Source: Patescibacteria group bacterium
GTDB taxonomy: Bacteria; Patescibacteriota; Minisyncoccia; Phycocordibacterales; Phycocordibacteraceae
Assembly (NCBI GenBank): GCA_018970425.1
Contig: JAGWWK010000001.1
Span: 49,004-113,003 of the forward strand
Direction of reading: 5' to 3'
Length of the DNA: 64,000 nucleotides
Each line of letters begins with the position of its first letter. Positions within the stretch are counted from its first letter, which is position 1. This document shows, in pieces, positions 6,927 through 39,125 of the stretch. The notes under the pieces were generated by a model. It worked only from the letters and a program-made list of their open reading frames with translations, was not told the DNA's origin and did no database searches. The translations under genes were made by a program, and so were the position numbers.

Positions 6927-7655
6927 CTACCGCCAGTCGATGGCGCCACGGCCGTGCGCTACTAAGTATTCATTAGCTCGCGCAAAGTGATTGTTACCGA
7001 AAAAGCCTCGATGCGCGGAGAGTGGTGACGGGTGCGCTGATTCAAGTATGAGGTGTTTAGTGCTATCGATGAGGTGAGCTTTTTTACGCGCGTACGACCC
7101 CCAGAGCAAAAAAACGACATGCTCCGCTGCGTCGGAAACTCCTTTGATCACGGCATCCGTAAACTGATGCCAGCCGTATTCTGCATGCGAGTTTGCTAAA
7201 CCGCTTTCGACCGAGAGTGATGCATTGAGAAGTAATACACCCTGTTCTGCGAAGCGAGTAAGATCCGGGTCATTGGCGGTAGCGAAGCCTTCTCGACGGA
7301 GCTCCTTAAAAATATTTGCGAGGGAGGGCGGGACGCGCGCGCCTGCGCGCGCCGAAAATGCGAGTCCGTCGGCGACGCCCGGGGTGTGGTACGGATCCTG
7401 ACCAAGGATCACTACGCGCACATCGGCAGGTGCAATCATGAACGCTCGCGCGAGATCTGCCCTATTGGGTAGTGCGGTACCGGCGCGGTACGCGCGCTCA
7501 ACTTTCTCTTGAAGTGCCAAGAAGTATGGCTTTTCAAATTCCGAGCTGAGGAGGCTCGTCCACTCCGGCCCAAGCGTCAGTGGTGCGGTACTCGGCCGAG
7601 AGGTGTCTGAGCTACCAGATGTGCGCACGTTTTTCCGGGGGGCGATAGAGAGCAT
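6927..7655 (-). CDS. ung: Uracil-DNA glycosylase (family 1)
   Basis: VVILGQDPYHTPGVADGLAFS and HPSPLSA motifs. Start is uncertain: the ORF overlaps the pepO 3' end by about 44 nt. Confidence 0.85.
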   Translation of the reverse strand: MLSIAPRKNVRTSGSSDTSRPSTAPLTLGPEWTSLLSSEFEKPYFLALQEKVERAYRAGTALPNRADLARAFMIAPADVRVVILGQDPYHTPGVADGLAFSARAGARVPPSLANIFKELRREGFATANDPDLTRFAEQGVLLLNASLSVESGLANSHAEYGWHQFTDAVIKGVSDAAEHVVFLLWGSYARKKAHLIDSTKHLILESAHPSPLSAHRGFFGNNHFARANEYLVAHGRGAIDWR

Positions 7656-9591: not shown

Positions 9592-9624
9592 TCACATTCA
9601 AGAGAAAAATGGTACAGTATTTCT

Positions 9625-11406: not shown

Positions 11407-11423
11407 CGCGGTACAATACACGC

Positions 11424-12542
11424 GTGTCTACCCGTTGCGTAGTTGATCTTGATTCCGGCTCTGTTGGCGTGTGCTCTCTTGCACTCGAAGATACGCCACA
11501 TATCAGTGGTGTACTCCGTTTGCCATTCACGGCACAGCCGGGAGACCCGGGCGCGCTTGAAGTCGCACTCCTCGCGGCGCTCCGCACCGCGCTCGATTCT
11601 CTCAAAGACGTACCGGCGGATGCGCCGGTAGATGTTGTGGTGGCGTCGCCGTGGTTTGATGCATCTCTTATCGCGCTCGAAGGGCGACAGTCGGGCACTA
11701 TTTCTGAGTTGGAGCGCAGGCGGCTCATAGAAGAAGCAAGAGCTCAGTACCCGACAGCGCCTCACCTTGCATCGCTTGAAGAACTGTCAGTCGAAACGCG
11801 CGTTAACGGGCATGTAACTACACTTACCAATCCTGTTCATGGAGGCCAGCTATCTGTCCTTTTGTACCGAAGCGTGGCTGATGCATCGTTCATTACGCGC
11901 GTGCAGGATGTAATTCATGCGGCACGGCCGCATGCTCCGGTTTTTTGGCACACTACACCTACTGTGTACGCGGGAGCGCTTCGCGCTGTTCGGTCTGATG
12001 CATACACCATCATTGATGTGGGCAGTGAAGTGACTGATCTGGTACTCATGTCTCAAGGAGTGATCCGTGCGCTCAGATCTGTTCCAGCTGGCTATAGAAC
12101 CATCGCTCGCACTATCGCCCCGGACCGCCCCCTCGCAGACACGCTGTCCCGGCTGTCCATGCTTGCCCGAGCCGAACTCCGCGCCCCTGAAGCCGATGCG
12201 CTCCAAAGCCAACTCTCTCGCGCCGCACACGCGTTCGCCGATCCGCTTATCACTGCACTTAAAGATGCGGGAAATTCCGCTCCGTTCACACACCAAGTAC
12301 TGCTTATCGGTGACTCTGACGCGCTCGTATGGCTGCCGCAGGTTGTCGATTTAGTGCAGTTTGGTGGCCGTCCGCTTCAGAGTACGCTCGTCGACCACGA
12401 ACTCCTGCGAGGTCTTGCAACGTTCGGGGCGTCAGGTGTGTTTGATGCATCACTCGTAACCGCGTCGCTTTTTTTCCACACCACGAAGCATAAGTCCAGA
12501 AAAAAAAGTTGGATCGAGCGCGTGCTATACTCCACTCTATGA
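11424..12542 (+). CDS. Actin-fold (PilM/FtsA-like) ATPase, divergent
   Basis: N-terminal VVDLDSGSVGV. IIDVGSEVTDLVLMSQGVIRALRSVPAGYRTIARTIA resembles the phosphate-2/adenosine motifs of PilM/FtsA. Confidence 0.5.
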   Translation: MSTRCVVDLDSGSVGVCSLALEDTPHISGVLRLPFTAQPGDPGALEVALLAALRTALDSLKDVPADAPVDVVVASPWFDASLIALEGRQSGTISELERRRLIEEARAQYPTAPHLASLEELSVETRVNGHVTTLTNPVHGGQLSVLLYRSVADASFITRVQDVIHAARPHAPVFWHTTPTVYAGALRAVRSDAYTIIDVGSEVTDLVLMSQGVIRALRSVPAGYRTIARTIAPDRPLADTLSRLSMLARAELRAPEADALQSQLSRAAHAFADPLITALKDAGNSAPFTHQVLLIGDSDALVWLPQVVDLVQFGGRPLQSTLVDHELLRGLATFGASGVFDASLVTASLFFHTTKHKSRKKSWIERVLYSTL

Positions 12543-13783
12543 ACGGTCGCAGTATTCAAGACATTGTGCCACCGGCTCGTACAAAGCCCATACGGCCAGT
12601 CTCGAATCCGCCGCGCTTACCACCTGAATCACACATACCCATGGAACCACGCTCCGGCCTGCCATTCACTGCAATCGCGACTGCAGCAGTCGTTGTTGTA
12701 GGTATTGTTGTTTTTATCATGAGCACGGTATTTCATACGGCGCTCATCCGCGTACAGCTCTTCGAGCGGAGCATTGACGCGAGTCAGACCTATGAGGCAG
12801 GAGCTGAGAAGCTTATCGCATATGCACCCATCACTGTTTCTGCCGAGGCATCTCGAACTGTTCCTGCAACTGGTAGCGTAGAGGCAAAAGACCGAGCGAG
12901 CGGAACTATCGTAATCTCGAACACGCACAGTGCTCGGCCACAGCGTCTGATTACCAACACACGCTTTGCGACCGATGATGGGAAAGTCTATCGAATCCAT
13001 GCGCCAGTCACTGTCCCTGGCTATACAACGAGAAACGGAGAGCGTATTCCTGGCACCGCGGAGGCAATGGTGTATGCAGACGAGCCAGGTGAGGCATACA
13101 ACCGCGAGAGCGCGACTCTTAAACTCCCTGGCCTCAAGGGATCAGCGCAATACGATACGATTACCGCGACGACGAAGACTCCGCTAGCCGGCGGATTTTT
13201 GGGCATGCGCCCATCTGTTGAGAAGTCATTGCGCGACCAAACAGTTGCCGATTTAACAGCTGAGCTCGATCGCGTGCTGCGCGAAAAGCTCATTGCTGCG
13301 CTCCAACCGGAGTCAGTTGTCATTCCTGGCTCTATCGAGTTCACGTATACTGAAGGGCCGCTTAGCGCAGCTGACGATAAGGCGACGATTACGGTTACTG
13401 GTTCGGCAATTGCTCCCGCTCTGACAGCAGAGACTCTCGTACGGACCCTTGCGGCCAGTGCAAATGCACCCTCCGATATTCCGCTTGTATTAGGGAATCC
13501 GGAGTCTCTCGAGTTTGCAGCTATCGATATCGCAGGCCTCAAGGAGGGAAGGTCGATTAAGTTCTCCCTCTCGGGTACTGCAGAGCTCGAGGCTGCGTTT
13601 GACCCAAAGGCCTTTGCACTTGACCTTGCAGGCAAGGGGCGCGATGAAGCTGCGCAAGTACAGGCCTCGTACCGAGCGATTACCGGCCCTGTTACCATTA
13701 CAGTACGACCATTCTGGCGGTCATCCCTTCCTGCCAATCCGGAGCGTATAACGGTGGAGACCGTCCCACCCCTTGACCGATAG
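12539..13783 (+). CDS. Membrane-anchored hypothetical protein (N-terminal TM, large extracytoplasmic domain)
   Basis: ATGA start/stop overlap with the upstream gene. Hydrophobic helix AIATAAVVVVGIVVFIM. Confidence 0.5.
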   Translation: MNGRSIQDIVPPARTKPIRPVSNPPRLPPESHIPMEPRSGLPFTAIATAAVVVVGIVVFIMSTVFHTALIRVQLFERSIDASQTYEAGAEKLIAYAPITVSAEASRTVPATGSVEAKDRASGTIVISNTHSARPQRLITNTRFATDDGKVYRIHAPVTVPGYTTRNGERIPGTAEAMVYADEPGEAYNRESATLKLPGLKGSAQYDTITATTKTPLAGGFLGMRPSVEKSLRDQTVADLTAELDRVLREKLIAALQPESVVIPGSIEFTYTEGPLSAADDKATITVTGSAIAPALTAETLVRTLAASANAPSDIPLVLGNPESLEFAAIDIAGLKEGRSIKFSLSGTAELEAAFDPKAFALDLAGKGRDEAAQVQASYRAITGPVTITVRPFWRSSLPANPERITVETVPPLDR

Positions 13784-17714: not shown

Positions 17715-17969
17715 ATGAGCGGCAGGGAAGATTGGACTTCCTACGACACAGGGCTCGACATGTGCAAGACCAGCGGGCGCATGCGCAATACCGCGTGGCT
17801 TGCGACAGCAGCGTTCAGTTCGCTCTCCGTGCTGTTGTTTTTGCCGGACGAGCGGTGGCACATCTTCGGCTGGTCAGGTGTGTTGATAGGGTTAGTACTC
17901 GGTTGTGTCGCATTTCGCGATTTCCGCATTCTGCGTGGGTGGCGAGACGAGCTTTTAGAGAAATCCTAG
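17715..17969 (+). CDS. Small hypothetical membrane protein (2 TM)
   Basis: 84-aa ORF with two hydrophobic helices, immediately after rpsI. Confidence 0.4.
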   Translation: MSGREDWTSYDTGLDMCKTSGRMRNTAWLATAAFSSLSVLLFLPDERWHIFGWSGVLIGLVLGCVAFRDFRILRGWRDELLEKS

Positions 17970-17974
17970 GGTGT

Positions 17975-18223
17975 ATGAGCATTTTGATTCCTCACTGGCT
18001 AGAGCAGGCCGCGCGCTCGAATCGGCGACTTTCGGGGAGGACGGTCATGGCGCTTTCGCAGGCTGCGGTAGCATGCTTTTTGATTGCAGGAGCTGGAAAG
18101 CTCTGTAGTGATAACGTCGAGACTTTCAGAGAAGAGTTTTTTGTTTTCAGCGCGGGCAGTGCGGTTCTTGGTCTCATATTTCTCATATGGGCAATCCGCG
18201 AGCGGTCTCGTACGGCTAGATAG
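17975..18223 (+). CDS. Small hypothetical membrane protein (2 TM)
   Basis: ATG at 17975, inside the longer overlapping 17732 ORF. Two hydrophobic helices. Confidence 0.35.
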   Translation: MSILIPHWLEQAARSNRRLSGRTVMALSQAAVACFLIAGAGKLCSDNVETFREEFFVFSAGSAVLGLIFLIWAIRERSRTAR

Positions 18224-18758: not shown

Positions 18759-20591
18759 ATGGGAAAAATTCTTGGCATTGACCTTGGTACGACTAACTCC
18801 GCGATGGCTATTGTTGAGGCCGGTGAGCCGCGCATTGTTGAAAATGCGGAAGGTAACCGCACGACACCGTCGGTTATCGCGCTATCAAAAACCGGCGAGC
18901 GACTAGCAGGACTTATTGCGCGCAGACAAGCCGTAACAAATCCGAAAAACACCATTTACCAAATCAAGCGATTCATTGGACACACATTTGACGAGCCCGG
19001 TGTCGAGAAGGATCGAAAATCGGTACCGTTCGAACTGCGGAAAAGTGCTACAGGCGGTATTGAGGTTCTTATGGGTGAAAAGTGGTACACGCCTGAGGAG
19101 GCATCCGCGATGATCTTGTCAAAACTCAAGCGCGACGCTGAAGCGAAGCTTGGTGAGCCAATTACCGAGGCGGTTATCACGGTACCTGCGTACTTTAATG
19201 ACGCGCAGCGGCAGGCGACCAAAGACGCAGGCCGGATTGCTGGTCTCGACGTAAAGCGCATAATTCCAGAACCAACTGCGGCTGCTCTCGCATACGGATT
19301 CGACAAAAAGAAAGATGAAAAAATTGCCGTGTTCGACTTCGGAGGCGGAACCTTTGATATATCTATTTTGGAAGTGGGAGCGGATGTCATTGAAGTTAAA
19401 GCTGTTGATGGCGATGCGCACCTGGGCGGCAAGGATCTCGATCAAAAGATAATGGAGTGGCTCGCGTCGGAATTTAAAAAGGAGTCCGGTATAGACATTT
19501 TGACGGATCCACTCGCTCGGCAGCGTCTTGACGAAGCGGCAGAAAAAGCAAAGATTGAACTTTCAACTGCTGTTGACACAGAAGTCAACATTCCGTTCAT
19601 AACCTCAGATGCATCCGGTCCAAAACATCTCCTCATTAAGCTCTCGCGAGCGAAACTTGAGGAACTTGCTCGCGAGTACATTGACCGCGCGATGCTGATC
19701 ACTAAACGCGCGATGGAGGCGTCGCCGTTTAAAGTAGGAGACATTGACGAGGTTGTGCTCGTCGGAGGCCAGACGCGTATGCCGGCCTTGCAGCAGGCAG
19801 TGGAGCAATTTTTCGGAAAGAAGCCGCACATGGGTGTAAACCCAGATGAGGTAGTCGCAATCGGAGCCGCGATCCAGGGCGGGATCCTGCAGGGCGATGT
19901 TAAAGATGTACTTCTTCTTGATGTCATTCCGCTCTCCCTGGGAATTGAGACGATGGGCGGTGTGGCCACGAAGCTGATTGAACGCAACACCACCATACCG
20001 ACCTCACGCTCGCAGGCCTTTTCAACTGCGGCAGATAACCAGACTTCTGTTGAGATACATGTCATTCAGGGTGAGCGCGCGATGGCGAACGACAACAAGT
20101 CGCTCGGCCGCTTCCACCTTGATGGCATAGCACCCGCGCCGCGCGGCCTTCCGCAAATAGAGGTATCCTTTGACGTCGACGCCAACGGAATACTGAGCGT
20201 CAAGGCGAAAGACAAGGCAACCAATAAAGAACAATCGATACGCATTGAGGCACGGTCAGGACTCTCTGATGCGGATATTGAAAAGATGCGCGCTGATGCA
20301 GAAGCGCATGCTGACGCGGACCGAGCGGCTCGAGACTTAGCCGAAGCGCGAAACGCGGCAGATGCACTCCTCTACGCGGCGCAGAAGTCTCTTACTGATT
20401 CTGCAGACGCGGTACCGGCCGACATTCGGCAATCAGTCGAGAGCGCGATGAGCACGCTGCGCACCGCGCATGGCGGCACGGATAGCGAAGCAATACGCTC
20501 GGCGACCAACGCCCTGAACGCGGAGATGCAAAAGATCCCTAGGCGAGAAACCCCACCGGGAAGTGACGCAGCAAGTACGCCAGAGAAGTAA
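18759..20591 (+). CDS. dnaK: Chaperone DnaK (Hsp70)
   Basis: GIDLGTTNS and DLGGGTFD motifs. Confidence 0.97.
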
Positions 20592-21649
20592 TGGCACTCG
20601 ACTATTACCAAGTACTCGGCGTTGAGCGCTCCGCGTCGAAGGACGACATAAAGAAGGCGTTTAGAACGCTGGCGCATAAGTACCACCCAGATAAACCAGG
20701 CGGAGACGAGAAAAAATTCAAGGAGGTTAGTGAGGCATACGCGGTGCTGTCCGACGACAAGAAGCGTGCCGCGTATGACGCGTACGGTAGTGCGCACGGG
20801 GGTGGCGGATTTGATGGGTTCGACTTCTCTCAATTTTCCGGATTCCAGGGCGCACACGGGTTCAACGTCAACATCGACGATCTGTTTGGTGGATTTTCTG
20901 ATATGTTTGGCGGAAAGGGGAGGGAACGACGTGGTCGAGACATCTCGATCGACCTTCAGCTTTCATTTCGCGAGTCCGTGTTTGGTGCAGAGCGCACCGT
21001 CACTCTGACGCGAGATACGGCATGCGCGCGCTGCTCAGGCAATGGAGCAGAGCCGGGGTCAAAGCTCGTCACCTGCGCGACGTGCTCGGGGAAAGGTACA
21101 GTCATTGAGAGCCAGCGCTCGCCGTTCGGCGTATTCTCCCTGTCTCGTGCGTGCGGGAGTTGCTCAGGTCGCGGCACTATTCCTGAGAAGCCGTGTACTG
21201 CCTGTGCCGGCAGAGGGGTAACTCGAGGAAAGGGGGATGTGCATGTCAGGATTCCTGCCGGCATTGAAGACGGTCAGACCATTCGGATGAGTAAGTACGG
21301 AGAAGCGCTCCTCGGTGGTGCACCGGGCGACCTGTATGTAACAGTACATGTAGTCGCGGATCCTGCGTTTCGCCGCGAGGGATACCATCTCATAACAGAG
21401 CTCCCCATTAAAATTACTGACGCGCTTCTTGGGGGGACGCACACGGTTGCAACGCTAGACGGTCCCACAACTATTGACATCGAGCCGATGAAATCGACAG
21501 ATGAACTCGTGCGTATCAAAGGAAAAGGGGTCCCGCATGGTGCCGGACGTCGTGGCGACTTAGTCGTGCGTGTTCGAGTAGTACTACCCGAGAAGCGTTC
21601 CAAGGGCGCTATGGAACTGTTGAAAAAATTGCGTGATGAGGGAATGTAG
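20591..21649 (+). CDS. dnaJ: Chaperone DnaJ
   Basis: J domain with HPD, Gly-rich linker, and a CxxCxGxG zinc-finger repeat. Confidence 0.95.
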
Positions 21650-21670
21650 GGTATACTCCGCATAGTCCAC

Positions 21671-22168
21671 ATGGACACTGCAGTTTCACCAAACGTCAGT
21701 GCCGCTCTCAACCTAACAGCCGACTTTTTCCTTGCCTTCGGCTCCGATTTGTTTGTTTTCGGGACGCTGTGCGTCCTCGTGCTTCTATATGCGATGACCT
21801 ACGGGCGTGACCGCTTGGTTCCACTTGCGGCAGCACTCTACACGGGTCTCGTCGTCATGGCGTACTTCCCGTACGAGAGTATGTTCGGAGGGTCAGCCTA
21901 CATGGAGGCCGGCGCGTATATGGGTATTGTCTGTATTGGTACGGCGGCGTACTCGGGACTCTCAAGCTGGCTACCAAGCTCAGCGGGCAGCTTTGTGAAG
22001 ACCGCGCTTTTTTCTGGAGTGCTAGCGCTCTTTTTTGTAGCAATTGCAATCCACCTCTTTCCTGGCTTGTACTCATGGAGTCCAGCAACGCTCGCGCTTT
22101 TCAGTGAAGAACTGCTGTTTTGGTGGCTCCTCGCACCGCTTGCCGGCGCCCTTGCTTTCAGTAGATAA
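21671..22168 (+). CDS. Hypothetical polytopic membrane protein
   Basis: 165-aa ORF with 4-5 hydrophobic segments. Confidence 0.5.
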   Translation: MDTAVSPNVSAALNLTADFFLAFGSDLFVFGTLCVLVLLYAMTYGRDRLVPLAAALYTGLVVMAYFPYESMFGGSAYMEAGAYMGIVCIGTAAYSGLSSWLPSSAGSFVKTALFSGVLALFFVAIAIHLFPGLYSWSPATLALFSEELLFWWLLAPLAGALAFSR

Positions 22169-22229
22169 AGTCTATGCATAGCAGTTCACAACATCTTCCG
22201 GCCTGTCGTAGAACAGTCCTTGCGTTCTC

Positions 22230-22949
22230 ATGCGGATAAAGTACTACTCGATCCTCCCGTTCGTCTTTCAGTTTCTTTTTTGGCGCATGAGTATGCGCAT
22301 TTTTTTTAATTTTTTTGTGAGGCTAAGAGTCACAGGCATAGAACATCTTGCCGATGTCTCAGGTCCGGTGGTGTTTGCTCCTAATCACATGTCAGAAGTG
22401 GATGCACTTCTTCTCCCACTAGCGCTTCCCAAAATTTCTAAATTTTCACCAGTTTATTTTGTTGTGAAAGAACGGCGGTTTTACAACACTTCTACTTTTG
22501 GCTGGAGGCGTCACTTATATCAATCATGGATCTTTAGGATGCTCGGTGCATTTGCAGTACGGTCGGGATTACAGGACTATGAAACTGCTCTTAGTTCGCA
22601 TGTTGACCTTCTCAGACGCGGAGGCGCGGTTTGTATCTTTCCTGAGGGTCGAATGTCTAAGACTGGCACCCCGGGTCGAGCTCATGGCGGCATGGCGTAC
22701 CTAGCAGTGCGCTCGCCGGCTGCCGTTGTTCCTGTGCGGATTCATGGCACAGCGCATCTATCGCTCGTCCGCTTTTTTTTGCGTGCGCACTCTGTCTCAG
22801 TTGAATTTCTTCCGCCTCGCTCATTGGTCGTCCCAGCAGGCACCCCTGAAGACTACCGGCGCGCAGCACAAGGTGTACTTGACGAGGTATACCGGCCCGC
22901 GACCACTGAACTGACTGCATTTGCACACGTTCCTGCGCCTGCAGTATGA
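22230..22949 (+). CDS. plsC: Lysophospholipid (1-acyl-glycerol-3-phosphate) acyltransferase, PlsC family
   Basis: HxxxxD motif NHMSEVD, FPEGRMS motif. Confidence 0.8.
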   Translation: MRIKYYSILPFVFQFLFWRMSMRIFFNFFVRLRVTGIEHLADVSGPVVFAPNHMSEVDALLLPLALPKISKFSPVYFVVKERRFYNTSTFGWRRHLYQSWIFRMLGAFAVRSGLQDYETALSSHVDLLRRGGAVCIFPEGRMSKTGTPGRAHGGMAYLAVRSPAAVVPVRIHGTAHLSLVRFFLRAHSVSVEFLPPRSLVVPAGTPEDYRRAAQGVLDEVYRPATTELTAFAHVPAPAV

Positions 22950-24076
22950 AGACAGTCGGTCTTTTAATGGCCCTGTTTGGCGATCTTTTGATTCGGTTCT
23001 CCCCGCGGGCAGAACCTCTCACAGGATTTGCTTTTATCGTGCATCCGCGCTCACAATCTGACATACTTAAAAAGTATCCTTTCCTTAGGTATTTTCCGAA
23101 TTGGATTATTGACTCAATCATGCGCAGGCTCTGGCCTGTTACAGTGAGTCGCATAAGCGGACTGAAATCAATAGCTGGAGAAGAGGTATGTGGATTTGTG
23201 ATATCTATACCGCTTACTGCTCGCCAGATGCTGGAACACCGCTCTGCCGCGGTAGCAGCAGTACGCGCGGCTATAGATCTCGGCAAGGCTCGAGGGGTCA
23301 AAATGTTCGGGCTTGGCGGACTCACATCATCGGTTACCAAAGGAGGTATGGACCTACTAGATATACCAGAAATTGTTCTTACGACGGGTCACGCGTATAC
23401 CGGGGTGAATGTCACTCGTAACGTTTTTGAGATAATCAAAAGGCGACAGCAGGCAGTCGATCAGCAGACAATCGCGATTGTAGGGGCTGCAGGGTCTATA
23501 GGCTCAATATCTGCTCAAATCTTAGCTCGTGCAGGGGTACAACGGCTAATTCTTATAGATCTTGAGCGAAAAAAAGAGTTAGTAGAAGCATTAATTCCTG
23601 AACTTATGCGTCTGCAGCCGCTTCTCTGCATTGAGACAACTCACCATCTTTCAGACTTGAAAAAAGCGCACTATATCATAGCAGCTACAAATGCCCCAGA
23701 AGCTCTGATTCATGCAGATGATCTCTCGCCAGGAGCTGTTGTTGTAGATGATGCTCAGCCGTCAGATGTTGCAGACGATGTGCTAGAGCGAAGTGACGTG
23801 CTCGCTATTGAGGCGGGTGTCGTACATACGCCCGGAATTAGTGTAAATTTCGACATGGGGCTCAAGAATCGATATGACAATTTCTGTTGCTTGGCTGAAC
23901 TTTTGATTCTCGCATCCCGATCGTATTCAACGCACTACGTCATCAACCGACCATCACTCGCGCATGTCGATGAAATAGCTGCATGGGGTGATGCATTGGG
24001 TTTTAAGATTGCAAAGTTTCAAAATCGAAAAGCGATGCTGGAACGAGAGCACCTCCAGCGTTGTGGAGTACAATAA
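22946..24076 (+). CDS. Acyl-ACP reductase (AAR)-family NAD(P)-dependent oxidoreductase
   Basis: Blocks FAFIVHP, GLGGLTSS, TTGHAYTGVNVTRNV and IAIVGAAGSIGS align with cyanobacterial acyl-ACP reductase from memory. ATGA overlap with plsC. Confidence 0.65.
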   Translation: MKTVGLLMALFGDLLIRFSPRAEPLTGFAFIVHPRSQSDILKKYPFLRYFPNWIIDSIMRRLWPVTVSRISGLKSIAGEEVCGFVISIPLTARQMLEHRSAAVAAVRAAIDLGKARGVKMFGLGGLTSSVTKGGMDLLDIPEIVLTTGHAYTGVNVTRNVFEIIKRRQQAVDQQTIAIVGAAGSIGSISAQILARAGVQRLILIDLERKKELVEALIPELMRLQPLLCIETTHHLSDLKKAHYIIAATNAPEALIHADDLSPGAVVVDDAQPSDVADDVLERSDVLAIEAGVVHTPGISVNFDMGLKNRYDNFCCLAELLILASRSYSTHYVINRPSLAHVDEIAAWGDALGFKIAKFQNRKAMLEREHLQRCGVQ

Positions 24077-24093
24077 GGATATTCAAAACGACT

Positions 24094-25713
24094 ATGGAGA
24101 TAGATAGCATTAGCGTGCTTGTAGTTGCTGTAGCGGTTCTGAACATTTTGTATGGACTTGTCGTGTATGCACGCAATAGTCTTGATGGTACGAGTCGATC
24201 CTTTTTTATACTAACCATCTGCGTATCACTGTGGGGCGTCAGTATGGTCTCGCTCCGGGCATTTACTGACCCGATCATCGCTACTTGGAGCGCCAGGGCG
24301 CTGTATGCCAGTGCCGCAATGATACCGCTCGCGTCGCTTTACTTCGCGTACATGTTTCCTTCAGAGAGGCGACATATCCGACTTCTCTTGGGGGGATGTA
24401 TTGCGTTGCCTTTTCTGGCAGCATTTTTTATTTCTCTATGGGCCGATGGTTTGATTCAAGGGGTTACTATTGTGCACGGCGTTGAGCCCGTTATTCACTT
24501 CAACTTTGTATTGCATGCGGGGTACGTAGGCTACATTGTTTCTTACTTCCTAGCAGTATTTGTCGTACTGTTCTACAAATACGGAACGTCACGGGGGGTG
24601 CTGCGGGCTCAGATCGCCTATATTCTCGTCGGAACTCTCATAACAACAGGTACTGCTGTCGGTACAAATCTACTCTTGCCTTTTGCCGGAAACTATACAC
24701 TGAATTGGGTAGGTCAAGTTGGAACACTCGCGATGATCACGTCCATAATGTATGCGATCCTCAAGCATCACTTATTTAGTGTAAAAATCATCGGAACGGA
24801 AATTATCGTTTGCGCTCTTTGTCTCGTTCTATTCTCACAAATATTTGCGACCCCTAGCTTTGAAGACCGAGTTCTAGCGTCCCTTATTTTCGTCGCAGCA
24901 ATGATAATTGGGTACCTGCTCGTGAAAAGTGTAAGTCGGGAAGTAGGTCAACGTGAAGAAATAGAGCGACTGTACGAGAAGCTTGAGCGCACCAATGAGA
25001 GACTCACTGAGTTGGATCGGCTGAAATCGCAATTTCTGTCGATAGCGAGCCATGAGCTCCGTGCCCCTCTTACCATCGTGCGAAACTTTATGTCTATTAT
25101 GCTCGAGGGATCGTACGGCAAGATACCACCAGCCGCGGAGGAAGCTGGACGGCAGGTATTTGAGCGCGTGACCGATATGACGCGCGCGGTCGATACGTAC
25201 TTAAACGTATCTCGCATAGAGCAGGGGAAAATTACTTACGCCTTCGCTCCTGCCGATTTATCTGACCTCGTTACTCGAGCGGTAGCTGACATGCGGCCGC
25301 ACGCGGAGCGAAAAGGCCTCGAGCTCGAGTACCAGACCGCGCTACATGCAGACGCGATTCGCGCACGCGTCGATGCGCCTAAAATTACTGAAATTGTCAC
25401 GAATCTGATCGACAACGCTATTCGCTACACCCCGCGAGGATCAATCACGGTTTCGCTAGCAGTCCATGGCGGATCTGCGGTGCTTTCAGTGCAGGACACT
25501 GGCGTGGGTATGACACCACACACGCAGAAGCATCTATTCAAACTCTTTACGCCAGGGGAAAACGCTAAAACTATCAACCCGGCATCAACCGGCGTCGGAC
25601 TCTTTGTGTCGCGCGCGCATGCAGAGGCGCATCGCGGGACGCTTGTTGGTCGCTCGCGAGGGGTAGGGGAGGGATCCACATTTGTCCTCACGATACCGCT
25701 TGCCGGTAGGTAG
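24094..25713 (+). CDS. Sensor histidine kinase with a multi-TM N-terminal sensor domain
   Basis: H-box SHELRAPLT, N/G boxes (DNAIRYT, DTGVGM), 6-7 N-terminal TM helices. No response regulator nearby. Confidence 0.85.
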   Translation: MEIDSISVLVVAVAVLNILYGLVVYARNSLDGTSRSFFILTICVSLWGVSMVSLRAFTDPIIATWSARALYASAAMIPLASLYFAYMFPSERRHIRLLLGGCIALPFLAAFFISLWADGLIQGVTIVHGVEPVIHFNFVLHAGYVGYIVSYFLAVFVVLFYKYGTSRGVLRAQIAYILVGTLITTGTAVGTNLLLPFAGNYTLNWVGQVGTLAMITSIMYAILKHHLFSVKIIGTEIIVCALCLVLFSQIFATPSFEDRVLASLIFVAAMIIGYLLVKSVSREVGQREEIERLYEKLERTNERLTELDRLKSQFLSIASHELRAPLTIVRNFMSIMLEGSYGKIPPAAEEAGRQVFERVTDMTRAVDTYLNVSRIEQGKITYAFAPADLSDLVTRAVADMRPHAERKGLELEYQTALHADAIRARVDAPKITEIVTNLIDNAIRYTPRGSITVSLAVHGGSAVLSVQDTGVGMTPHTQKHLFKLFTPGENAKTINPASTGVGLFVSRAHAEAHRGTLVGRSRGVGEGSTFVLTIPLAGR

Positions 25714-25731
25714 TTGTGGTATAGTTCCCGC

Positions 25732-25812
25732 ATGATCACGCTCACAGCACTCGGAGGCCTTGCTCTCGGAACTGCGATTGGCGTATTTGTTACTGACGTT
25801 TGGATTCTTTAG
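25732..25812 (+). CDS. Hydrophobic micropeptide (26 aa)
   Basis: MITLTALGGLALGTAIGVFVTDVWIL. Confidence 0.25.
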   Translation: MITLTALGGLALGTAIGVFVTDVWIL

Positions 25813-25816
25813 AGAT

Positions 25817-25891
25817 ATGATTGGCTGGATCCTTTTGTGGATTCTAATCGGCGTGGGCATCGGCTACGCGGTGCGTAAATGGTTCTACTAG
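25817..25891 (+). CDS. Hydrophobic micropeptide (24 aa), YeaQ/YmgE-like
   Basis: MIGWILLWILIGVGIGYAVRKWFY. Confidence 0.3.
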   Translation: MIGWILLWILIGVGIGYAVRKWFY

Positions 25892-25913
25892 CCCCCTGTG
25901 CTACCATAGCGCT

Positions 25914-26855
25914 ATGTCAAAAAAGCGTCGCCTCACTGGACTTCAACCCTCCGGGAATCTCCACATTGGTAACTACTTTGGAGCACTGAAGCCATTTGTC
26001 GATGAGTACCGAAACTACGACAGTATTTTGATGGTCGTGGACTATCACGCGCTTACGTCACTTAAAGACGGCCCACAGCTCAGGGCACACATCCTCTCGG
26101 CAGTCCGCGACTATCTAGCAGTAGGCATAGATCCTAGCTCGCTCGTCCTCTTTAAGCAGTCAGATGTGCTTGAGCACACAGAGCTTGCGTGGATCCTTGA
26201 CTGCCTTGTCACGGTCCCGTTTCTTATGCAAGGGCACGCGTACAAAGATAAACTCGCGAAAGGACTTGAGGCAAATGCAGGACTTTTTACATATCCAATG
26301 CTCATGGCCGCCGACATTCTCCTGTATGACACAGAACTGGTACCCGTAGGCGAAGATCAGCGTCAACACGTCGAGTATGCGCGAGAAGCAGCAGCAAAGT
26401 TTAATTTGGCTTTCGGGCAGACGTTTCTTGAACCAAAGGAGCAAATTTCTGCGAATGTAGGAGTCGTCCCGGGTACAGACGGTCTAAAGATGAGTAAAAG
26501 CTACGGTAATACTATCCCACTTTTCGGCAACAGGGATGAGACCGCGCAGGCAGTAATGAGCATCGTGACAGATTCAGCTGGAGACGTCCCCGCTAACGTA
26601 TACGCCATACACAAACTCTACAAGACTGAAGCAGAGCTTGCGCCGCTCTATGAATCCAACAAGGGTAAGTACAAGGCACTAAAGGAGGCGCTGATAGAAG
26701 ATATAGAAGCGCATGTAGCACCTATGCGCGAGAAGCGTGCGTCGATCTCAGACGACGATGTGAAGCGCGTACTAGTCGAGGGTGCAGAAAAAGCGCGAGC
26801 GATTGCGAGCGCTAAGATGGCTGACGTTCGCCAAAAAATCGGCGTTGCGCTATAG
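25914..26855 (+). CDS. trpS: Tryptophanyl-tRNA synthetase
   Basis: GLQPSGNLHIGNYFG and KMSKS motifs. Confidence 0.95.
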   Translation: MSKKRRLTGLQPSGNLHIGNYFGALKPFVDEYRNYDSILMVVDYHALTSLKDGPQLRAHILSAVRDYLAVGIDPSSLVLFKQSDVLEHTELAWILDCLVTVPFLMQGHAYKDKLAKGLEANAGLFTYPMLMAADILLYDTELVPVGEDQRQHVEYAREAAAKFNLAFGQTFLEPKEQISANVGVVPGTDGLKMSKSYGNTIPLFGNRDETAQAVMSIVTDSAGDVPANVYAIHKLYKTEAELAPLYESNKGKYKALKEALIEDIEAHVAPMREKRASISDDDVKRVLVEGAEKARAIASAKMADVRQKIGVAL

Positions 26856-26862
26856 TAAAAAG

Positions 26863-28185
26863 ATGGCACGAACACTCATACGGGATCTCAAAAGCGCGGT
26901 AGGCAAAGAGGTAACGATCAAAGGCTGGGTCGATGTTCGGCGCGATCAGGGCAAACTAATCTTTTTCGACATTCGCGATCGCTCGGGGAAGGTACAAGCC
27001 GTTGTGCTCCCCAAGAGTCCTGCTCTGGACGTTGCAAAAGACGCAGGACTCGAGTATGCAGTTGAAGTCAAAGGCAAGGTAAATGCACGACCAGAAAAAA
27101 ACGTAAATGCAAAAGTTCTTAATGGAGATATTGAGCTTGAAGTCGCCGAAGTGACTGTGCTTGGAAAAGCCGAGCCGCTTCCGTTCGACATGTCAGCAGA
27201 TGGATTTAATCTTGACCTCACGACCGAGCTCGATCATCGTGCGCTCACTCTTCGTCATCCGCGTCTTCAGGCCATATTTAAAGTCAGCGCGGTCATTATT
27301 GACAGCTTCCGCGAGTTTATGAAGTCGCAGGACTTTTTTGAGTTCCAGGCTCCATCGATAGCCCCCGCGACCGCTGAAGGTGGAGCGGAAGTCTTCCAAG
27401 TTCAATATTTTGATAAAAAAGCGTATCTATCGCAGTCGCCGCAGCTCTACAAGCAAATTGTAATGACGGCGTTTGAGCGCGCATTCTCTGTAAACAAGGT
27501 CTTTCGTGCAGAGCCATCAGCTACGACTCGTCACCTCACTGAAATAGTCATGCTCGATGCTGAGATGGGCTTTATTGACTCGTGGACCGATGTTCGCGAC
27601 ATGGCTGAAGCTACAGTGCGCTACATCCTTACTCAAGTTGGCACAAAATGCAGTGCTGAACTCGAGTTTCTCGGGGCTACGCTACCGACAATGATCGATA
27701 AAACACCGACGTACTCGCTTAAGGAAGCGTTCGAAAAATTGGGCATACCTGAAGATAAGGATCTTAACCCTGAGCAAGAGCGTGCCTTGTGCGAAGTGGT
27801 AAAGAAGGAGACTGGCTCTGACTTCGTATTCGTTTGGGGCTATCCAACGAAAAAGAAGCCATTCTACGTGTATCCACACCCAGAAAATCCAGAAGTGAAC
27901 GAAGGTGTTGACCTGTTGTGTCGCGGCGTCGAGTGGCTCTCAGGTGGCCGACGTATAAATGACTACGAGCAGCTTATGAAGCATGTGAACGAGTGGCAGA
28001 TGGATCCAAAGAAGATAGAAATGTTCCTCGAGGCGTTCCGCTACGGTGTGCCACCTGAAGGCGGGTTTGCGTTCGGTGCAGAGCGCATGACCATGCAGAT
28101 ACTCGGACTTAAGAACATTCGCGAGGCAGCTATGTTCCCCCGCGACATGCACCGAATAGACCACCCGTTAAGTGCTCTGGACTAG
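26863..28185 (+). CDS. aspS: Aspartyl-tRNA synthetase, archaeal/eukaryotic type (class IIb); AsnRS not excluded
   Basis: N-terminal OB fold (VTIKGWVDVRRDQGKLIFFDIRDRSG) and a roughly 440-aa class II core. Confidence 0.8.
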   Translation: MARTLIRDLKSAVGKEVTIKGWVDVRRDQGKLIFFDIRDRSGKVQAVVLPKSPALDVAKDAGLEYAVEVKGKVNARPEKNVNAKVLNGDIELEVAEVTVLGKAEPLPFDMSADGFNLDLTTELDHRALTLRHPRLQAIFKVSAVIIDSFREFMKSQDFFEFQAPSIAPATAEGGAEVFQVQYFDKKAYLSQSPQLYKQIVMTAFERAFSVNKVFRAEPSATTRHLTEIVMLDAEMGFIDSWTDVRDMAEATVRYILTQVGTKCSAELEFLGATLPTMIDKTPTYSLKEAFEKLGIPEDKDLNPEQERALCEVVKKETGSDFVFVWGYPTKKKPFYVYPHPENPEVNEGVDLLCRGVEWLSGGRRINDYEQLMKHVNEWQMDPKKIEMFLEAFRYGVPPEGGFAFGAERMTMQILGLKNIREAAMFPRDMHRIDHPLSALD

Positions 28186-28216: not shown

Positions 28217-30733
28217 TCATGCGGCGTACTCCTTGAGAAAACTGACCAGCTCCGGGCCATGATTTTTTCTCCAGGCAACGTGCATACGCACGGTCTCGAG
28301 GCATTGTGCTGCAGCCATTTTTGCGCCAGGAGCTTTGTGGGCAGATAGGAACTCTTTCACTTTTCGAGCGTCTTCAGTCGTGTTAAGCACATCAAGCGTA
28401 TGAATAAAGCGCGGCAGGTCATGCCCGCTTGTCCCGTATCGGTCAATAATGGTGGGCCAATGCTTCTCTAACACACCGAGCGCCTCGCGCGCCGCATGCA
28501 GGGTCCGTGATGCTCCGGCAAAAGCGACGCGTGTATCCTGTACGCGGACGGCCGTACTGAGCGCAAACTCAAGTACGCGAGCTGTGCCATGCGGCAAGCT
28601 ACTCAGCGCCGCGAGAATGCGATTTTTTTCCTCATGAAGCTCTACTTCCTTGTGGCGCGCCATCAGCGTTTCAAGACCGCCGGGTTCGCGACCAACCGCC
28701 GCGTACACTGCAAGTCGAAGATCAGGTGGCACGGTTTCGACATGTGGATAGAGAGACTGGAGGTCACTCGTGACTGTCGCGTCTCGGGCGTCCTGTAGCG
28801 CGAACGCGACCAATCCTCGTGTCAGTACATCTGTATACGATTCACCCTTCCGTGCGTGAAGCCCGACCCGTGCCAGTTGTGGGCCGAGCGTGTCTCGCAT
28901 GAATGCGTCGATGAGGCCCTCTTCGCGTTCAGCTTCTACAAATGGCTTGAGTTTTCTCACCGCAACGACGAACGTCCGGAGCACAGAAAAGTCTGTGTCA
29001 GCACGGATAAACGATGACAGTTGGAGTGCGTGAGCTATAGGGACGCGACCAGAAGCCGCAAGAGCAAATGCATCATCTACAAGACGCACGCGCTCGGCGG
29101 GAGTCAGAGTGCCCGCTCCTGCTGCAGCAGAAAGTTCGCTCATCAACCCCTCGTCGTAAGCTACTCGAAAGAATCCCGAGGCATCTGCGTTTAGATTTAT
29201 CACGCCTTTCTTGAGGGAGAGCGTGTCCGTACGTGCGCTCATAAGGTGCTCGCGAGCGTTCGTACCTCGCGTCGTGAGCGGTACGACCCACGGTCGCTCG
29301 TTCACTCGCTCGCCTGATGCGAGGAAACGCTCCTGGGAGAGACGGAGGTCGCCACGATGGCGCTCTGCAGTTATGACCGGATACCCTCCGCGCAGCGTGA
29401 AGTGGCGCATAAGCGTCGCAACGGGCTTACCACTCGAGGCGCTTAGGGCGGCCCACAAATCTTTAGTTTTCGCATTTCCGTACGCATGTGCTTTGAGGTA
29501 CGCGGTCAGCCCCCTGCGGAAGTCGCGCTCACCGAGATACGCAGTGAGCATGCGTATGACCGACGCGCCTTTTGCATAACTTACGGCATCGAAGATTTCA
29601 TTAATTTCAGACGGGTGCGCTACCTCTACCTGGATTGGATGGGTGGACTGAAGTGCATCAAGACGGAGCGCTTCTCCGGCATCGACTTCCACAAACTGCG
29701 TCCACATCTCCCACTCAGGGAATAGGTGGTTAAGTGCGACGTACTCGATATAGTTTGCAAATCCCTCATTCAGCCACAGGTCAGTCCACCACTCCATAGT
29801 CACTAGATTTCCAAACCATTGGTGCGCTAACTCGTGCGCAATCACGAGCGCGACGCGCTGCTTATTCTGGAGCGATGAATGCTGCGGGTCATAGAGAAGC
29901 GCTGTCTCTCTATAGGTGATTGCACCCCAGTTTTCCATTGCTCCTGCGGCAAAGTCCGGGATCGCTATATGGTCAACCTTTGTGAGCGGATAGGGGATGC
30001 GAAAATACTCCTCATAAAAATCAAGGCAACGCACCGCGGTGTCGAGCGCGAACGCGGCTTGCTGCTTCTTGCCTATGGGGGTGTACACGCGAGTGACTAC
30101 GCCGCGCTTTGAACGCCCTTCAAGATACTCAAGTTCTCCCACAACACAAGCGACGAGGTACGTAGACATCCGTGGAGTCGGCGCGAACGTTACAGTACGC
30201 GTACCCTCCGACACAGTTGACGACACTTCTTGCGTGTTAGAAATCGCGGAAAGGGATGCATCGACGACGAGCGTTATCTCGAACACTGCTTTCTTGTCCG
30301 GCTCGTCAAAGCAGGGAAACACCTGGCGCGCGAATGTTGACTCAAACTGAGTGACCGCGAGTACCTTCTCGACGCCATCTACGCGGTAGGTACTGCGGTA
30401 CAGTCCGCGCATCTTTTCCTGAATTGGCCCGGAAAAGACTATCTGAAGAGTGCCAGACCCCTTCGGCAGTGCCCGTGGGAAGGTGAGTGTCACCGTTTCT
30501 GACTTAGGGGAGAAGCGATGCGTACCCGCAAGCTCACCCACGGCACTGCGAACGCTCACACGGTCAATAGTGAGTCCCGAGGCATGCAGGACGAGTGTTT
30601 TAGATGCTTTAGTAAGTCGGTACGCAATGCGCACTGAGCCGCGAAAGGTATACGAGCGAAGGTCCGGCTCGAGCGTGAGCTCGTACCGTTCAGGAATACA
30701 GGTATTTGTAAGTCGAACAGAGTGTAAAGGCAT
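28217..30733 (-). CDS. pepN: Aminopeptidase N (M1 family)
   Basis: GAMEN motif and HELAHQWFGNLVTMEWWTDLWLNEGFA. Start set at the ATG at 30733; the ORF-track start at 30772 is a TTG. Confidence 0.9.
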   Translation of the reverse strand: MPLHSVRLTNTCIPERYELTLEPDLRSYTFRGSVRIAYRLTKASKTLVLHASGLTIDRVSVRSAVGELAGTHRFSPKSETVTLTFPRALPKGSGTLQIVFSGPIQEKMRGLYRSTYRVDGVEKVLAVTQFESTFARQVFPCFDEPDKKAVFEITLVVDASLSAISNTQEVSSTVSEGTRTVTFAPTPRMSTYLVACVVGELEYLEGRSKRGVVTRVYTPIGKKQQAAFALDTAVRCLDFYEEYFRIPYPLTKVDHIAIPDFAAGAMENWGAITYRETALLYDPQHSSLQNKQRVALVIAHELAHQWFGNLVTMEWWTDLWLNEGFANYIEYVALNHLFPEWEMWTQFVEVDAGEALRLDALQSTHPIQVEVAHPSEINEIFDAVSYAKGASVIRMLTAYLGERDFRRGLTAYLKAHAYGNAKTKDLWAALSASSGKPVATLMRHFTLRGGYPVITAERHRGDLRLSQERFLASGERVNERPWVVPLTTRGTNAREHLMSARTDTLSLKKGVINLNADASGFFRVAYDEGLMSELSAAAGAGTLTPAERVRLVDDAFALAASGRVPIAHALQLSSFIRADTDFSVLRTFVVAVRKLKPFVEAEREEGLIDAFMRDTLGPQLARVGLHARKGESYTDVLTRGLVAFALQDARDATVTSDLQSLYPHVETVPPDLRLAVYAAVGREPGGLETLMARHKEVELHEEKNRILAALSSLPHGTARVLEFALSTAVRVQDTRVAFAGASRTLHAAREALGVLEKHWPTIIDRYGTSGHDLPRFIHTLDVLNTTEDARKVKEFLSAHKAPGAKMAAAQCLETVRMHVAWRKNHGPELVSFLKEYAA

Positions 30734-30751
30734 ATACCAGTAAGCATACGG

Positions 30752-30757
30752 TATACT
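30752..30757 (+). promoter_or_regulatory. -10 box TATACT 6 nt upstream of the scpA ATG
   Basis: TATACT-tcgccc-ATG. Confidence 0.4.
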
Positions 30758-30763
30758 TCGCCC

Positions 30764-31486
30764 ATGAACCAAGGGTTTCTCGCAAAAACTGGCTCATTTG
30801 AGGGACCACTCGACCTACTTCTTTCACTCGTCGAGGAGCGCAAAATGCTCATTTCTGATGTATCACTCCGCGAGGTTGCGGACGACTTTATAGCATTTAT
30901 CTCGAGGCAAGATGCATACCCGGCGGAAGCGGCGGCACATTTTTTAGTTGTTGCCGCGACACTCTTACTTATTAAGTCGAAAGCGCTCCTCCCTGTACTC
31001 GAGCTCACTGACGAGGAGCAGGGAGACATTAAAGACCTCGAGCGGCGGCTTGCGATTCTCGCGGGCATTCGTGACGCTGCGCGAGGGCTGAGCTCGAGGG
31101 CGCGCTCTTATGTGGCTCCAGGACTTGTTATACGATCACCCTTGTTTATTCCCTCTGCGGACCTCAGCGTGGCTGCGCTCGTAGCGCACGCCGATGCAGT
31201 AGTTGCCGCGTTTCCGAAACCTGCCTCGCGGCCACTGGTCGCCGTTACTCCCGTGATGTCCCTCGATGAGATGATTCAGTCGATTTCGGCGCGGATTGAG
31301 CGCGCGATCAGGCTCTCATTTTCTGATGTAACAAGAGGAGCGCAGTCAGCGAAGGAGGTGGTAGTGAGCTTTCTCGCGCTCCTAGAGCTTGTTAAGCAGG
31401 GGAGGGCTCGTGCTGAACAAGGTGCGCATTTTGATGAAATTACGATAGAATATGCGGGTGACCTCAACGCTCCACGCTATGACTAA
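30764..31486 (+). CDS. scpA: Segregation and condensation protein A
   Basis: FEGPLDLLLSLVEERKMLISDVSL. Confidence 0.9.
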   Translation: MNQGFLAKTGSFEGPLDLLLSLVEERKMLISDVSLREVADDFIAFISRQDAYPAEAAAHFLVVAATLLLIKSKALLPVLELTDEEQGDIKDLERRLAILAGIRDAARGLSSRARSYVAPGLVIRSPLFIPSADLSVAALVAHADAVVAAFPKPASRPLVAVTPVMSLDEMIQSISARIERAIRLSFSDVTRGAQSAKEVVVSFLALLELVKQGRARAEQGAHFDEITIEYAGDLNAPRYD

Positions 31487-38921: not shown

Positions 38922-39125
38922 ATGAAATATTTACACTACGCAGCGCTTATCCTCGTCATTGTAGGAGGTCTTAATTGGGGCCTGTTCGCGTTCCAGTTGA
39001 ATCTGGTCAATATCCTCTTTGGAACTCTACCAGCCCTTGAGCAAGCGGTGTACCTCTTGGTAGCCCTTTCTGCTGTGTACCTTGCGTTCTCGCACTGGAA
39101 TGAGTGCAAGACGTGCTCCGTGTAA
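38922..39125 (+). CDS. DUF378-like small membrane protein
   Basis: ALILVIVGGLNWGLFAFQLNLV pattern. Confidence 0.6.
   Translation: MKYLHYAALILVIVGGLNWGLFAFQLNLVNILFGTLPALEQAVYLLVALSAVYLAFSHWNECKTCSV

Follow-up and report, generated by a model that had tools for sequence, protein, structure and literature searches.

What use would a member of the Patescibacteria have for an enzyme resembling the fatty-acyl-ACP reductases (AAR) of cyanobacteria, encoded in one row with an acyltransferase and a membrane-embedded sensor kinase? The question is raised by a 64,000-nt stretch of DNA from a Patescibacteria group bacterium (assembly GCA_018970425.1, contig JAGWWK010000001.1, positions 49,004–113,003), referred to here as the window and numbered from its first nucleotide. 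Four co-directional genes, read from the sequence at 21671–25713 on the forward strand, encode in this order a 165-aa membrane protein (TM165), an acyltransferase, a reductase and a sensor histidine kinase. Genomes of the candidate phyla radiation (CPR) generally lack fatty-acid and lipid synthesis as well as enzymes using acyl carrier protein (ACP; PMC7242380), and according to a review no mechanism of lipid uptake or breakdown has been identified in Patescibacteria (PMC11665869). The answer favoured here, with a probability of about one half, is that the genes form a membrane-associated module for kinase-linked fatty-acyl reduction and re-acylation, tied to exogenous lipid. Such a module would be a concrete, testable candidate for the acquisition, processing and monitoring of membrane lipids in Patescibacteria, that is, a lipid sensing and processing system in organisms that presumably cannot make their own lipids. 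The families of its parts are known; their conserved combination seems not to have been reported before, and a literature search found no published description of the reductase clade, its kinase partner or its fusions.

Family, Fold and Catalytic Residues of the Reductase

The reductase of 376 aa (22946–24076, +), whose sequence is identical to that of an NCBI protein entry, was classified from profile and fold matches as an AAR/PigE-N-type thioester reductase (AARL). Its best full-length match in NCBIfam is PigE (NF053554, 133.6 bits, residues 64–370), covering the first 350 of 837 model positions, and against the AAR equivalog TIGR04058 it scores 52.2 bits, far below the family cut-off of 449.7. 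Pfam recognises the Rossmann region alone (PF01488, Shikimate_DH, residues 163–285, 32.7 bits), and the glutamyl-tRNA reductase (GluTR) models of NCBIfam match residues 152–287 alone. When a profile built from 34 homologues was searched against the PDB, PigE (4ppm, 2.8e-31) was followed by AAR (6jzq, 1.1e-21) and the TAD domain of carmabin synthesis (2e-19); the same profile matched GluTR at 3.8e-06, confined to the Rossmann part. The AlphaFold (AF2) model, with a pLDDT of 93.2, has TM-scores of 0.72–0.83 to 9E4S–9E56 (carmabin TAD) and 6JZQ–6JZZ (AAR) in Foldseek, and these are its only full-length neighbours; all other structures stay below 0.4, with shikimate dehydrogenase and GluTR at 0.31–0.36. 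A grouping with the latter two families, which the preliminary description of the locus had named as grounds for giving up the AAR assignment, was not seen: their matches are limited to the Rossmann region and the full-length matches go to AAR-type enzymes, so this objection fails.

The likeness to AAR (EC 1.2.1.80; TIGR04058; PDB 6JZQ/6JZU) extends to the predicted three-domain fold (TM-score 0.74–0.83), to a dinucleotide loop of the GxxGxxG type (GAAGSIG, 23483–23503) and to a predicted nucleophilic cysteine within an FxC(F/L)AE helix. This Cys315 (codon 23888–23890) aligns with AAR C294 in both the profile and the pairwise alignment, C314 and C315 are invariant across the 34 homologues, and the cysteine is retained in fusion reductases from Margulisiibacteriota (FTCLGE) and from locus L067 (FTCLAE). 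AAR forms an acyl-Cys294 thioester intermediate (PMC7089970), PigE's N-terminal domain is a thioester reductase (PMC8341465), and the homologous domain of KecF is predicted to be one (PMC6498172); the predicted chemistry of the window enzyme is that of a Cys-dependent acyl-thioester/aldehyde oxidoreductase. In the alignment of the NADPH 2′-phosphate pocket, two of the three arginines of AAR have equivalents (R189 and R314 correspond to R208 and R335), the position of R193 is occupied by L212, and Asp205 is inserted after strand β2 relative to AAR. An NADH-specific label, considered on account of Asp205, was not adopted because two phosphate-pocket arginines are kept.

Unlike AAR, the enzyme and its clade carry an additional N-terminal helix of 25 residues in which Asp13 is invariant, and the enzyme is paired with an acyltransferase and a kinase, in organisms thought to be without ACP. 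It is 26% identical to a sequence of the S. elongatus AAR that is consistent with the PDB alignment. An aldehyde-deformylating oxygenase (ADO) was not found in the Pfam-annotated window and was not noticed in the related loci, on which no ADO query was run. The preliminary description had assigned the protein to the AAR family from four conserved blocks, all of which are present. The superfamily and the cysteine stand, and orthology has to be given up; the profile and fold matches place the reductase in the AAR/PigE-N/TAD thioester-reductase superfamily, as a member of a separate clade and not as an AAR orthologue. At E ≤1e-30 this clade comprises 826 representatives (clusters at 50% identity).

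PigE's N-terminal domain (prodigiosin; PDB 4PPM) and its counterpart in KecF share the cysteine and the overall domain with the reductase and include its best sequence match, but they act in secondary metabolism and are fused to a pyridoxal phosphate (PLP) aminotransferase; the window yielded no aminotransferase, and none was noticed in the loci inspected. The TAD of the carmabin nonribosomal peptide synthetase, whose PDB entries contain bound NAD/NADH and a reactive cysteine, is the top structural match (Foldseek E about 1e-21, TM-score 0.72–0.78), but it lies inside a megasynthase and shows 16–18% identity to the window enzyme.

Pairing of the Reductase with a Sensor Kinase

In the window the acyltransferase and reductase genes overlap by the tetranucleotide ATGA (22946–22949), and 17 nt separate the reductase stop from the kinase ATG (24094), exactly as described earlier; a Logan contig matching the window shows the same gene order. 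The conservation of this arrangement was followed in two sets of loci: a genome scan with one genome per species, which returned 68 loci, and a metagenome scan seeded with PilZ fusions, which returned 72, of which 56 combine a strong reductase match with 300 nt or more of downstream sequence. A homologous kinase was detected by tblastn downstream of the reductase and on the same strand in 59 genome loci, to which L065 and L067 were added by Pfam matches. Five genome loci without a detected kinase end at a contig edge, which leaves 64 informative ones, and in 61 of these the kinase adjoins the reductase, the junction usually being an overlap of 1–20 nt or a gap of at most 25 nt. In the metagenomes a kinase with multiple transmembrane (TM) helices abuts or overlaps the reductase stop in 54/56 informative loci; several kinases of this clade align with the membrane region of the window kinase or match HisKA_7TM, and the partner kinases in L065, L067, L073, L074, L079 and L080 match HisKA_7TM in Pfam. 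In 46 of 69 loci an acyltransferase gene precedes the reductase on the same strand, and in 37 of these the distance is within 150 nt.

The Patescibacteria labels found with the module are Paceibacterota, Kaiserbacteria, Nomurabacteria, Zambryskibacteria, Portnoybacteria and Doudnabacteria, and the reductase-kinase pair extends to Margulisiibacteriota (L065) and to soil and sediment bacteria of no assigned group. It is kept where both flanks change and where reductase identity falls to 31–35%. The link between kinase and reductase proposed earlier from one locus is thereby extended to a near-universal adjacency across phyla, often with overlapping start and stop codons, and this conservation of gene order argues that the kinase is a dedicated, functionally linked partner of the reductase. 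The uncharacterised HisKA_7TM sensor domain would gain in the module its first consistent functional partner.

In the closest long relative, L076, the kinase is 59% identical to that of the window. Around the array of this locus are inserted genes for a 23S rRNA intervening-sequence protein, a ParE-type toxin and a Y1 transposase (697–1053, 2163–2589 and 9693–10379), and a 61-aa open reading frame (ORF) without a Pfam family lies just upstream of the toxin gene; the conserved array tolerates such insertions while the four-gene core stays whole. Two to three HisKA_7TM kinase paralogues are found near the reductase in the Patescibacteria loci L005, L027, L036 and L072, and HisKA_7TM may be what these genomes chiefly use as a sensor.

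The Sensor Kinase

The kinase (24094–25713, +) has 539 aa counted from the ATG. Its residues 10–230 match PF16927 (HisKA_7TM) with 33.7 bits, above the gathering threshold of 28.6, and its C-terminal part consists of HisKA (His320, codon 25051–25053) followed by HATPase_c; domain annotation found no HAMP, PAS or receiver domain in the protein. Hydropathy and the AF2 model give about nine TM helices in place of the six to seven counted in the preliminary description, and the ninth continues directly into the DHp helix. A short conserved β-hairpin (residues 121–136) is placed by the model on the outer face, and the conserved residues E131, N192, P196, N204, W205, G207 and Q208 cluster in predicted outward loops. 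The fold search returned cytoplasmic kinase cores of the HK853 type only and detected no solved relative of the 7TM fold; a single-sequence search with the TM region gave nine matches only. No ligand has been reported for the HisKA_7TM domain (PMC5847659, PMC6944256).

The resemblance to DesK of Bacillus pointed out earlier is one of analogy. As in DesK/DesR, the sensor consists almost wholly of TM helices and is linked to an enzyme acting on acyl chains, but the window kinase has a HisKA (PF00512) and not a HisKA_3 DHp domain, about nine helices against five in DesK, no adjacent regulator, and a reductase in place of a desaturase as its partner.

The Acyltransferase, TM165 and the Downstream Spacer

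The acyltransferase of 239 aa (22230–22949, +) belongs to the PlsC/LPLAT superfamily (PF01553, 70.5 bits). The HX4D motif, HMSEVD (H53–D58), is encoded at 22386–22403 and FPEGR (residues 137–141) at 22638–22652; these motifs, the PF01553 fold and a hydrophobic N-terminus are shared with PlsC and with the acyltransferase domain of Aas. The gene had been called plsC. The score against PlsC (TIGR00530) is 34.6 bits at a cut-off of 102.95, and the best NCBIfam matches are to the acyl-ACP:lysophospholipid acyltransferase domain of Aas (61–68 bits), the acyl-ACP synthetase half of which is missing here. A GC-rich hairpin with a T-run lies at 22283–22307, inside the first 25 codons, and spans an alternative ATG (22293), the start chosen by the source assembly's gene caller. 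Orthologue lengths of 231–242 aa favour the longer start at 22230.

Upstream, TM165 (21671–22168, +) is the polytopic membrane protein mentioned in the preliminary description, a hydrophobic 165-aa ORF to which neither Pfam, NCBIfam nor an alignment of 15 orthologues assigned a family. G45, F144 and W152 are the sole conserved residues of that alignment. Homologues were found by jackhmmer between dnaJ and the acyltransferase gene in about 11 related loci, and in the nearest relatives (L070, L071 and L076) the TM165 stop overlaps the acyltransferase start; from this distribution, TM165 is judged to be a lineage-restricted upstream member of the operon.

The 200-nt spacer behind the kinase contains two hydrophobic mini-ORFs within 25732–25891 (+), of 26 aa (25732–25812) and 24 aa (25817–25891), which the gene caller of the source assembly left uncalled. 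Both frames are open, as had been noted, but the membership in the module attributed to them finds no support in any relative: phmmer detected no homologues in the whole set of small ORFs from the 68 related genome loci, a lax tblastn search of seven further contigs, including L076, gave matches at chance level only, and in 15 relatives the spacer between the kinase and the TrpRS or AspRS gene is shorter than 150 nt and has no small hydrophobic ORF. The two micropeptides were rejected as components.

Fusions and Neighbouring Genes in Other Lineages

Among the best 150 representatives of the reductase family about 20 exceed the others in length, and 20 of these were scanned for further domains. 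Five are fusions of a PF01553 acyltransferase with the reductase (P0143, P0144, P0157, P0140 and P0210), which implies that both enzymes act on the same molecule and agrees with the acyltransferase link suggested at the outset; seven are PilZ-reductase fusions. Where the sequence continues beyond the fusion (L073, L079, L080), the next gene encodes a HisKA_7TM kinase. The reductase is also the C-terminal domain of proteins of 803 or 888 aa in L065 (Margulisiibacteriota) and L067 (an unclassified bacterium), each followed by a HisKA_7TM-GAF kinase. The N-terminal regions of these two proteins (L065, 2370–4781; L067, 60–2726) comprise about 430–500 aa and have no Pfam match.

Genes for outer-membrane channels of the FadL/TodX type stand beside the pair, mostly divergently, in 16 metagenome loci (among L087–L137), and also in L075 (1–936; PF03349, 5.1e-49) and L077 (2–496; 2.4e-28), which implies a diderm host lineage for the non-CPR clade. 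In an Acidobacteriota-labelled metagenome-assembled genome (L063), which has no kinase, the acyltransferase-reductase pair is followed by a gene for a 1753-aa protein (8368–13629) that combines an LCAT/lipase-type α/β-hydrolase with PKD repeats. The lipid theme of the preliminary description is borne out by these neighbours, which point to long-chain, probably exogenous acyl groups as those handled.

A PilZ-reductase fusion occurs in 35 of the 72 metagenome loci, and receiver proteins are encoded in 14. Directly 3′ of the kinase, a REC-HD-GYP protein is encoded in L074, L130 and L137, which results in a row (L074, 380–6274; L130 and L137, about 7000–12300) of a reductase fused to PilZ, a kinase of the 7TM-GAF type and a phosphodiesterase with REC-HD-GYP architecture. 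This row looks like a self-contained cyclic di-GMP (c-di-GMP) circuit around an acyl reductase; it reads most simply as one in which the kinase would set the c-di-GMP level and c-di-GMP the activity of the reductase, and it favours a kinase that controls the enzyme. The control of the reductase by signalling that had been surmised for the window thus has a counterpart in PilZ fusions and REC-HD-GYP neighbours. In the Patescibacteria loci L012, L045, L052, L055 and L060, stand-alone receivers adjoin the cluster. The non-CPR relatives with FadL, PilZ and HD-GYP may be easier to study experimentally.

Proposed Function of the Module

Pfam annotation covered most of the larger ORFs of the window, and among those annotated the acyltransferase and the reductase are the only lipid-related enzymes; no fab, plsX, plsY or CDP-diglyceride (cds) genes were found among them. 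Searches of all window ORFs of at least 50 aa with phmmer, using CheY, PhoB, OmpR, Spo0F and E. coli ACP as queries, found neither a receiver domain nor an ACP, in agreement with the earlier remark that no response regulator lies nearby.

From the observed family assignments, conserved catalytic residues, gene coupling, fusions and neighbourhoods, we infer a substrate, a reaction direction, a cue for the kinase and an order of control as follows. The reductase would load an acyl group on Cys315 as a thioester, and NAD(P)H would release it as a long-chain aldehyde; the acyltransferase would add acyl groups to a lysolipid acceptor or take them off it. The nine-helix HisKA_7TM kinase, translated right after the reductase, would read a hydrophobic cue in the bilayer, either the pool of substrate or product or the incoming exogenous lipid, and would set the activity of the reductase, closing a feedback loop. 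Outside the Patescibacteria, the signal would pass from the kinase through REC-HD-GYP and c-di-GMP to the PilZ domain fused to the reductase; within them, the kinase may act by direct contact or via a receiver protein encoded elsewhere. For an organism dependent on host lipids, the module would adjust the processing of acyl chains to the amount of lipid supplied.

Several points weigh against this proposal. No member of the reductase clade has a reported activity, substrate or product, and the thioester substrate is undefined, because the usual acyl donors, acyl-ACP and acyl-CoA, may not exist in CPR cells (PMC7242380). The cofactor preference predicted from the alignment is ambiguous, with R208 and R335 kept, L212 in place of the third arginine and Asp205 inserted. 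The kinase is missing in two strong metagenome loci and in three informative genome loci (L042, L063 and L064), labelled Planctomycetota, Acidobacteriota and Verrucomicrobiia, two of which keep the acyltransferase. No kinase-linked regulator is encoded in the window or in most CPR loci, and the PilZ and HD-GYP data stem from other phyla and may not apply to Patescibacteria. Finally, long co-directional arrays are common in small genomes, and co-transcription alone is weak evidence because the cluster is embedded in such an array, grpE-dnaK-dnaJ ... trpS-aspS.

Alternative Explanations

The first alternative retains the link between the two genes and turns it round: the reductase would make a long-chain aldehyde, or a derivative of it, that serves as a membrane-permeant signal, and the multi-TM kinase would be its receptor. 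The models are RpfF/RpfC/RpfG (diffusible signal factor, DSF) of Xanthomonas, in which RpfF is the synthase, RpfC a multi-TM kinase and RpfG a REC-HD-GYP protein, and CqsA/CqsS (CAI-1) of Vibrio. In all of them, as in the module, an enzyme acting on fatty-acyl thioesters stands beside a multi-TM kinase without an extracytoplasmic domain, and in most of the loci studied here no regulator lies beside the kinase. The RpfG architecture recurs after the kinase in L074, L130 and L137, so that REC-HD-GYP and PilZ are both present in some relatives of the module; FadL channels could admit a hydrophobic signal, and the polar residues E131, N192, N204, W205 and Q208 of the kinase lie in predicted outward loops. 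The enzymes themselves are not homologous, with a crotonase or PLP fold in the known systems and the AAR fold here, and RpfC and CqsS are hybrid kinases, which the window kinase is not. No diffusible product is known for the module and there is no sign that a product leaves the cell. A PilZ domain on the enzyme suits a regulated effector equally well as a synthase, and a fusion with an acyltransferase would not be expected of a simple signal synthase. By analogy with these systems a synthase and receptor can be entertained tentatively. A broader version, held with the same reserve, would see in the pair a phylogenetically wide and previously unrecognised lipid-aldehyde signalling unit, in which the AAR-like enzyme would turn an acyl chain derived from the host or the environment into a long-chain aldehyde inside the membrane; HisKA_7TM would be the first receptor for long-chain aldehydes, and Patescibacteria might use it to detect host contact or lipid flow.

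The reaction might also run in reverse, the enzyme being an acylating aldehyde dehydrogenase that would pass an incoming aldehyde through acyl-Cys315 and the acyltransferase to a lysolipid, with no need of ACP, CoA or ATP. Such a route would fit CPR genomes, which appear to lack ACP-dependent enzymes, and the enrichment of lysolipids with CPR (PMC7242380). The acyltransferase-reductase fusions put the two active sites in one polypeptide, and Asp205 after β2 hints at NAD(H) over NADPH. FadL/TodX-type channels, which transport hydrophobic compounds in general, are encoded near the pair. On the other side, no source of long-chain aldehyde is known, and no PlsC-type enzyme is known to accept a protein-bound thioester as donor. 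The characterised relatives all run reductively (PMC7089970, PMC8341465), and the reverse direction is regarded as improbable.

Equally doubtful is the biosynthesis of ether, alkyl or wax-type lipids, with the kinase co-transcribed and otherwise uninvolved. The combination of a reductase with a PlsC-family acyltransferase follows the domain logic of known ether-lipid routes, ElbD in myxobacteria and FAR with GNPAT in animals, and a PlsC-reductase pair without the kinase occurs in the Planctomycetota-labelled L042 and the Acidobacteriota-labelled L063. Against this analogy, the adjacency of the kinase is the most conserved feature of the module, the window yielded no alkyl-dihydroxyacetone phosphate synthase or other enzyme that forms ethers, none was noticed in the loci inspected, and the lipids correlated with CPR in one lipidomic study were lysolipids (PMC7242380).

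A non-lipid substrate is very improbable. The homologues bear the automatic JGI name "predicted amino acid dehydrogenase", genes for tRNA synthetases follow downstream, and the weak GluTR and shikimate dehydrogenase matches might suggest a dehydrogenase of amino acids or semialdehydes, or an enzyme that, like GluTR, acts on an aminoacyl ester; but those matches are restricted to the Rossmann region of a protein whose full-length fold is that of thioester reductases, the acyltransferase fusion and the FadL neighbours indicate acyl chains, and many loci keep the pair yet lose the synthetase neighbours. Reductase and kinase might also be functionally unconnected and stand together through inherited synteny, for which the position within a long, partly conserved co-directional housekeeping array (dnaK-dnaJ upstream, trpS-aspS downstream) might speak. 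This reading can practically be dismissed, as the pair survives the change of both flanks, is kept at 31–35% reductase identity, recurs in Margulisiibacteriota and in a separate clade from metagenomes whose neighbouring genes are quite different, and persists after the reductase has been fused to other domains.

Other Features of the Window

The remaining annotated ORFs of the window encode ribosomal proteins, tRNA synthetases, GrpE-DnaK-DnaJ, cell-wall and division proteins, and peptidases. A scan of 20500–26900 for promoters and terminators gave counts not above those of shuffled sequence and is uninformative on transcript boundaries, and an Rfam scan of the window found one tRNA and nothing else. 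The lysyl-tRNA synthetase (PF01921; 55934–57481, −) is of the class I type, the less common one in bacteria. An unannotated 163-aa ORF without a Pfam match (17732–18223, +) lies between rpsI and grpE, and a likewise unannotated 67-aa ORF (38922–39125, +) encodes a two-helix membrane protein with the motif GGLNWGL, which we take to be that of DUF378 proteins. Two large zinc metallopeptidases are also encoded, one M13 neprilysin-like (7612–9591, −) the other M1 aminopeptidase N-like and ending in a C-terminal domain of the ERAP1 type (28217–30772, −); in so small a genome they may have to do with the scavenging of peptides.

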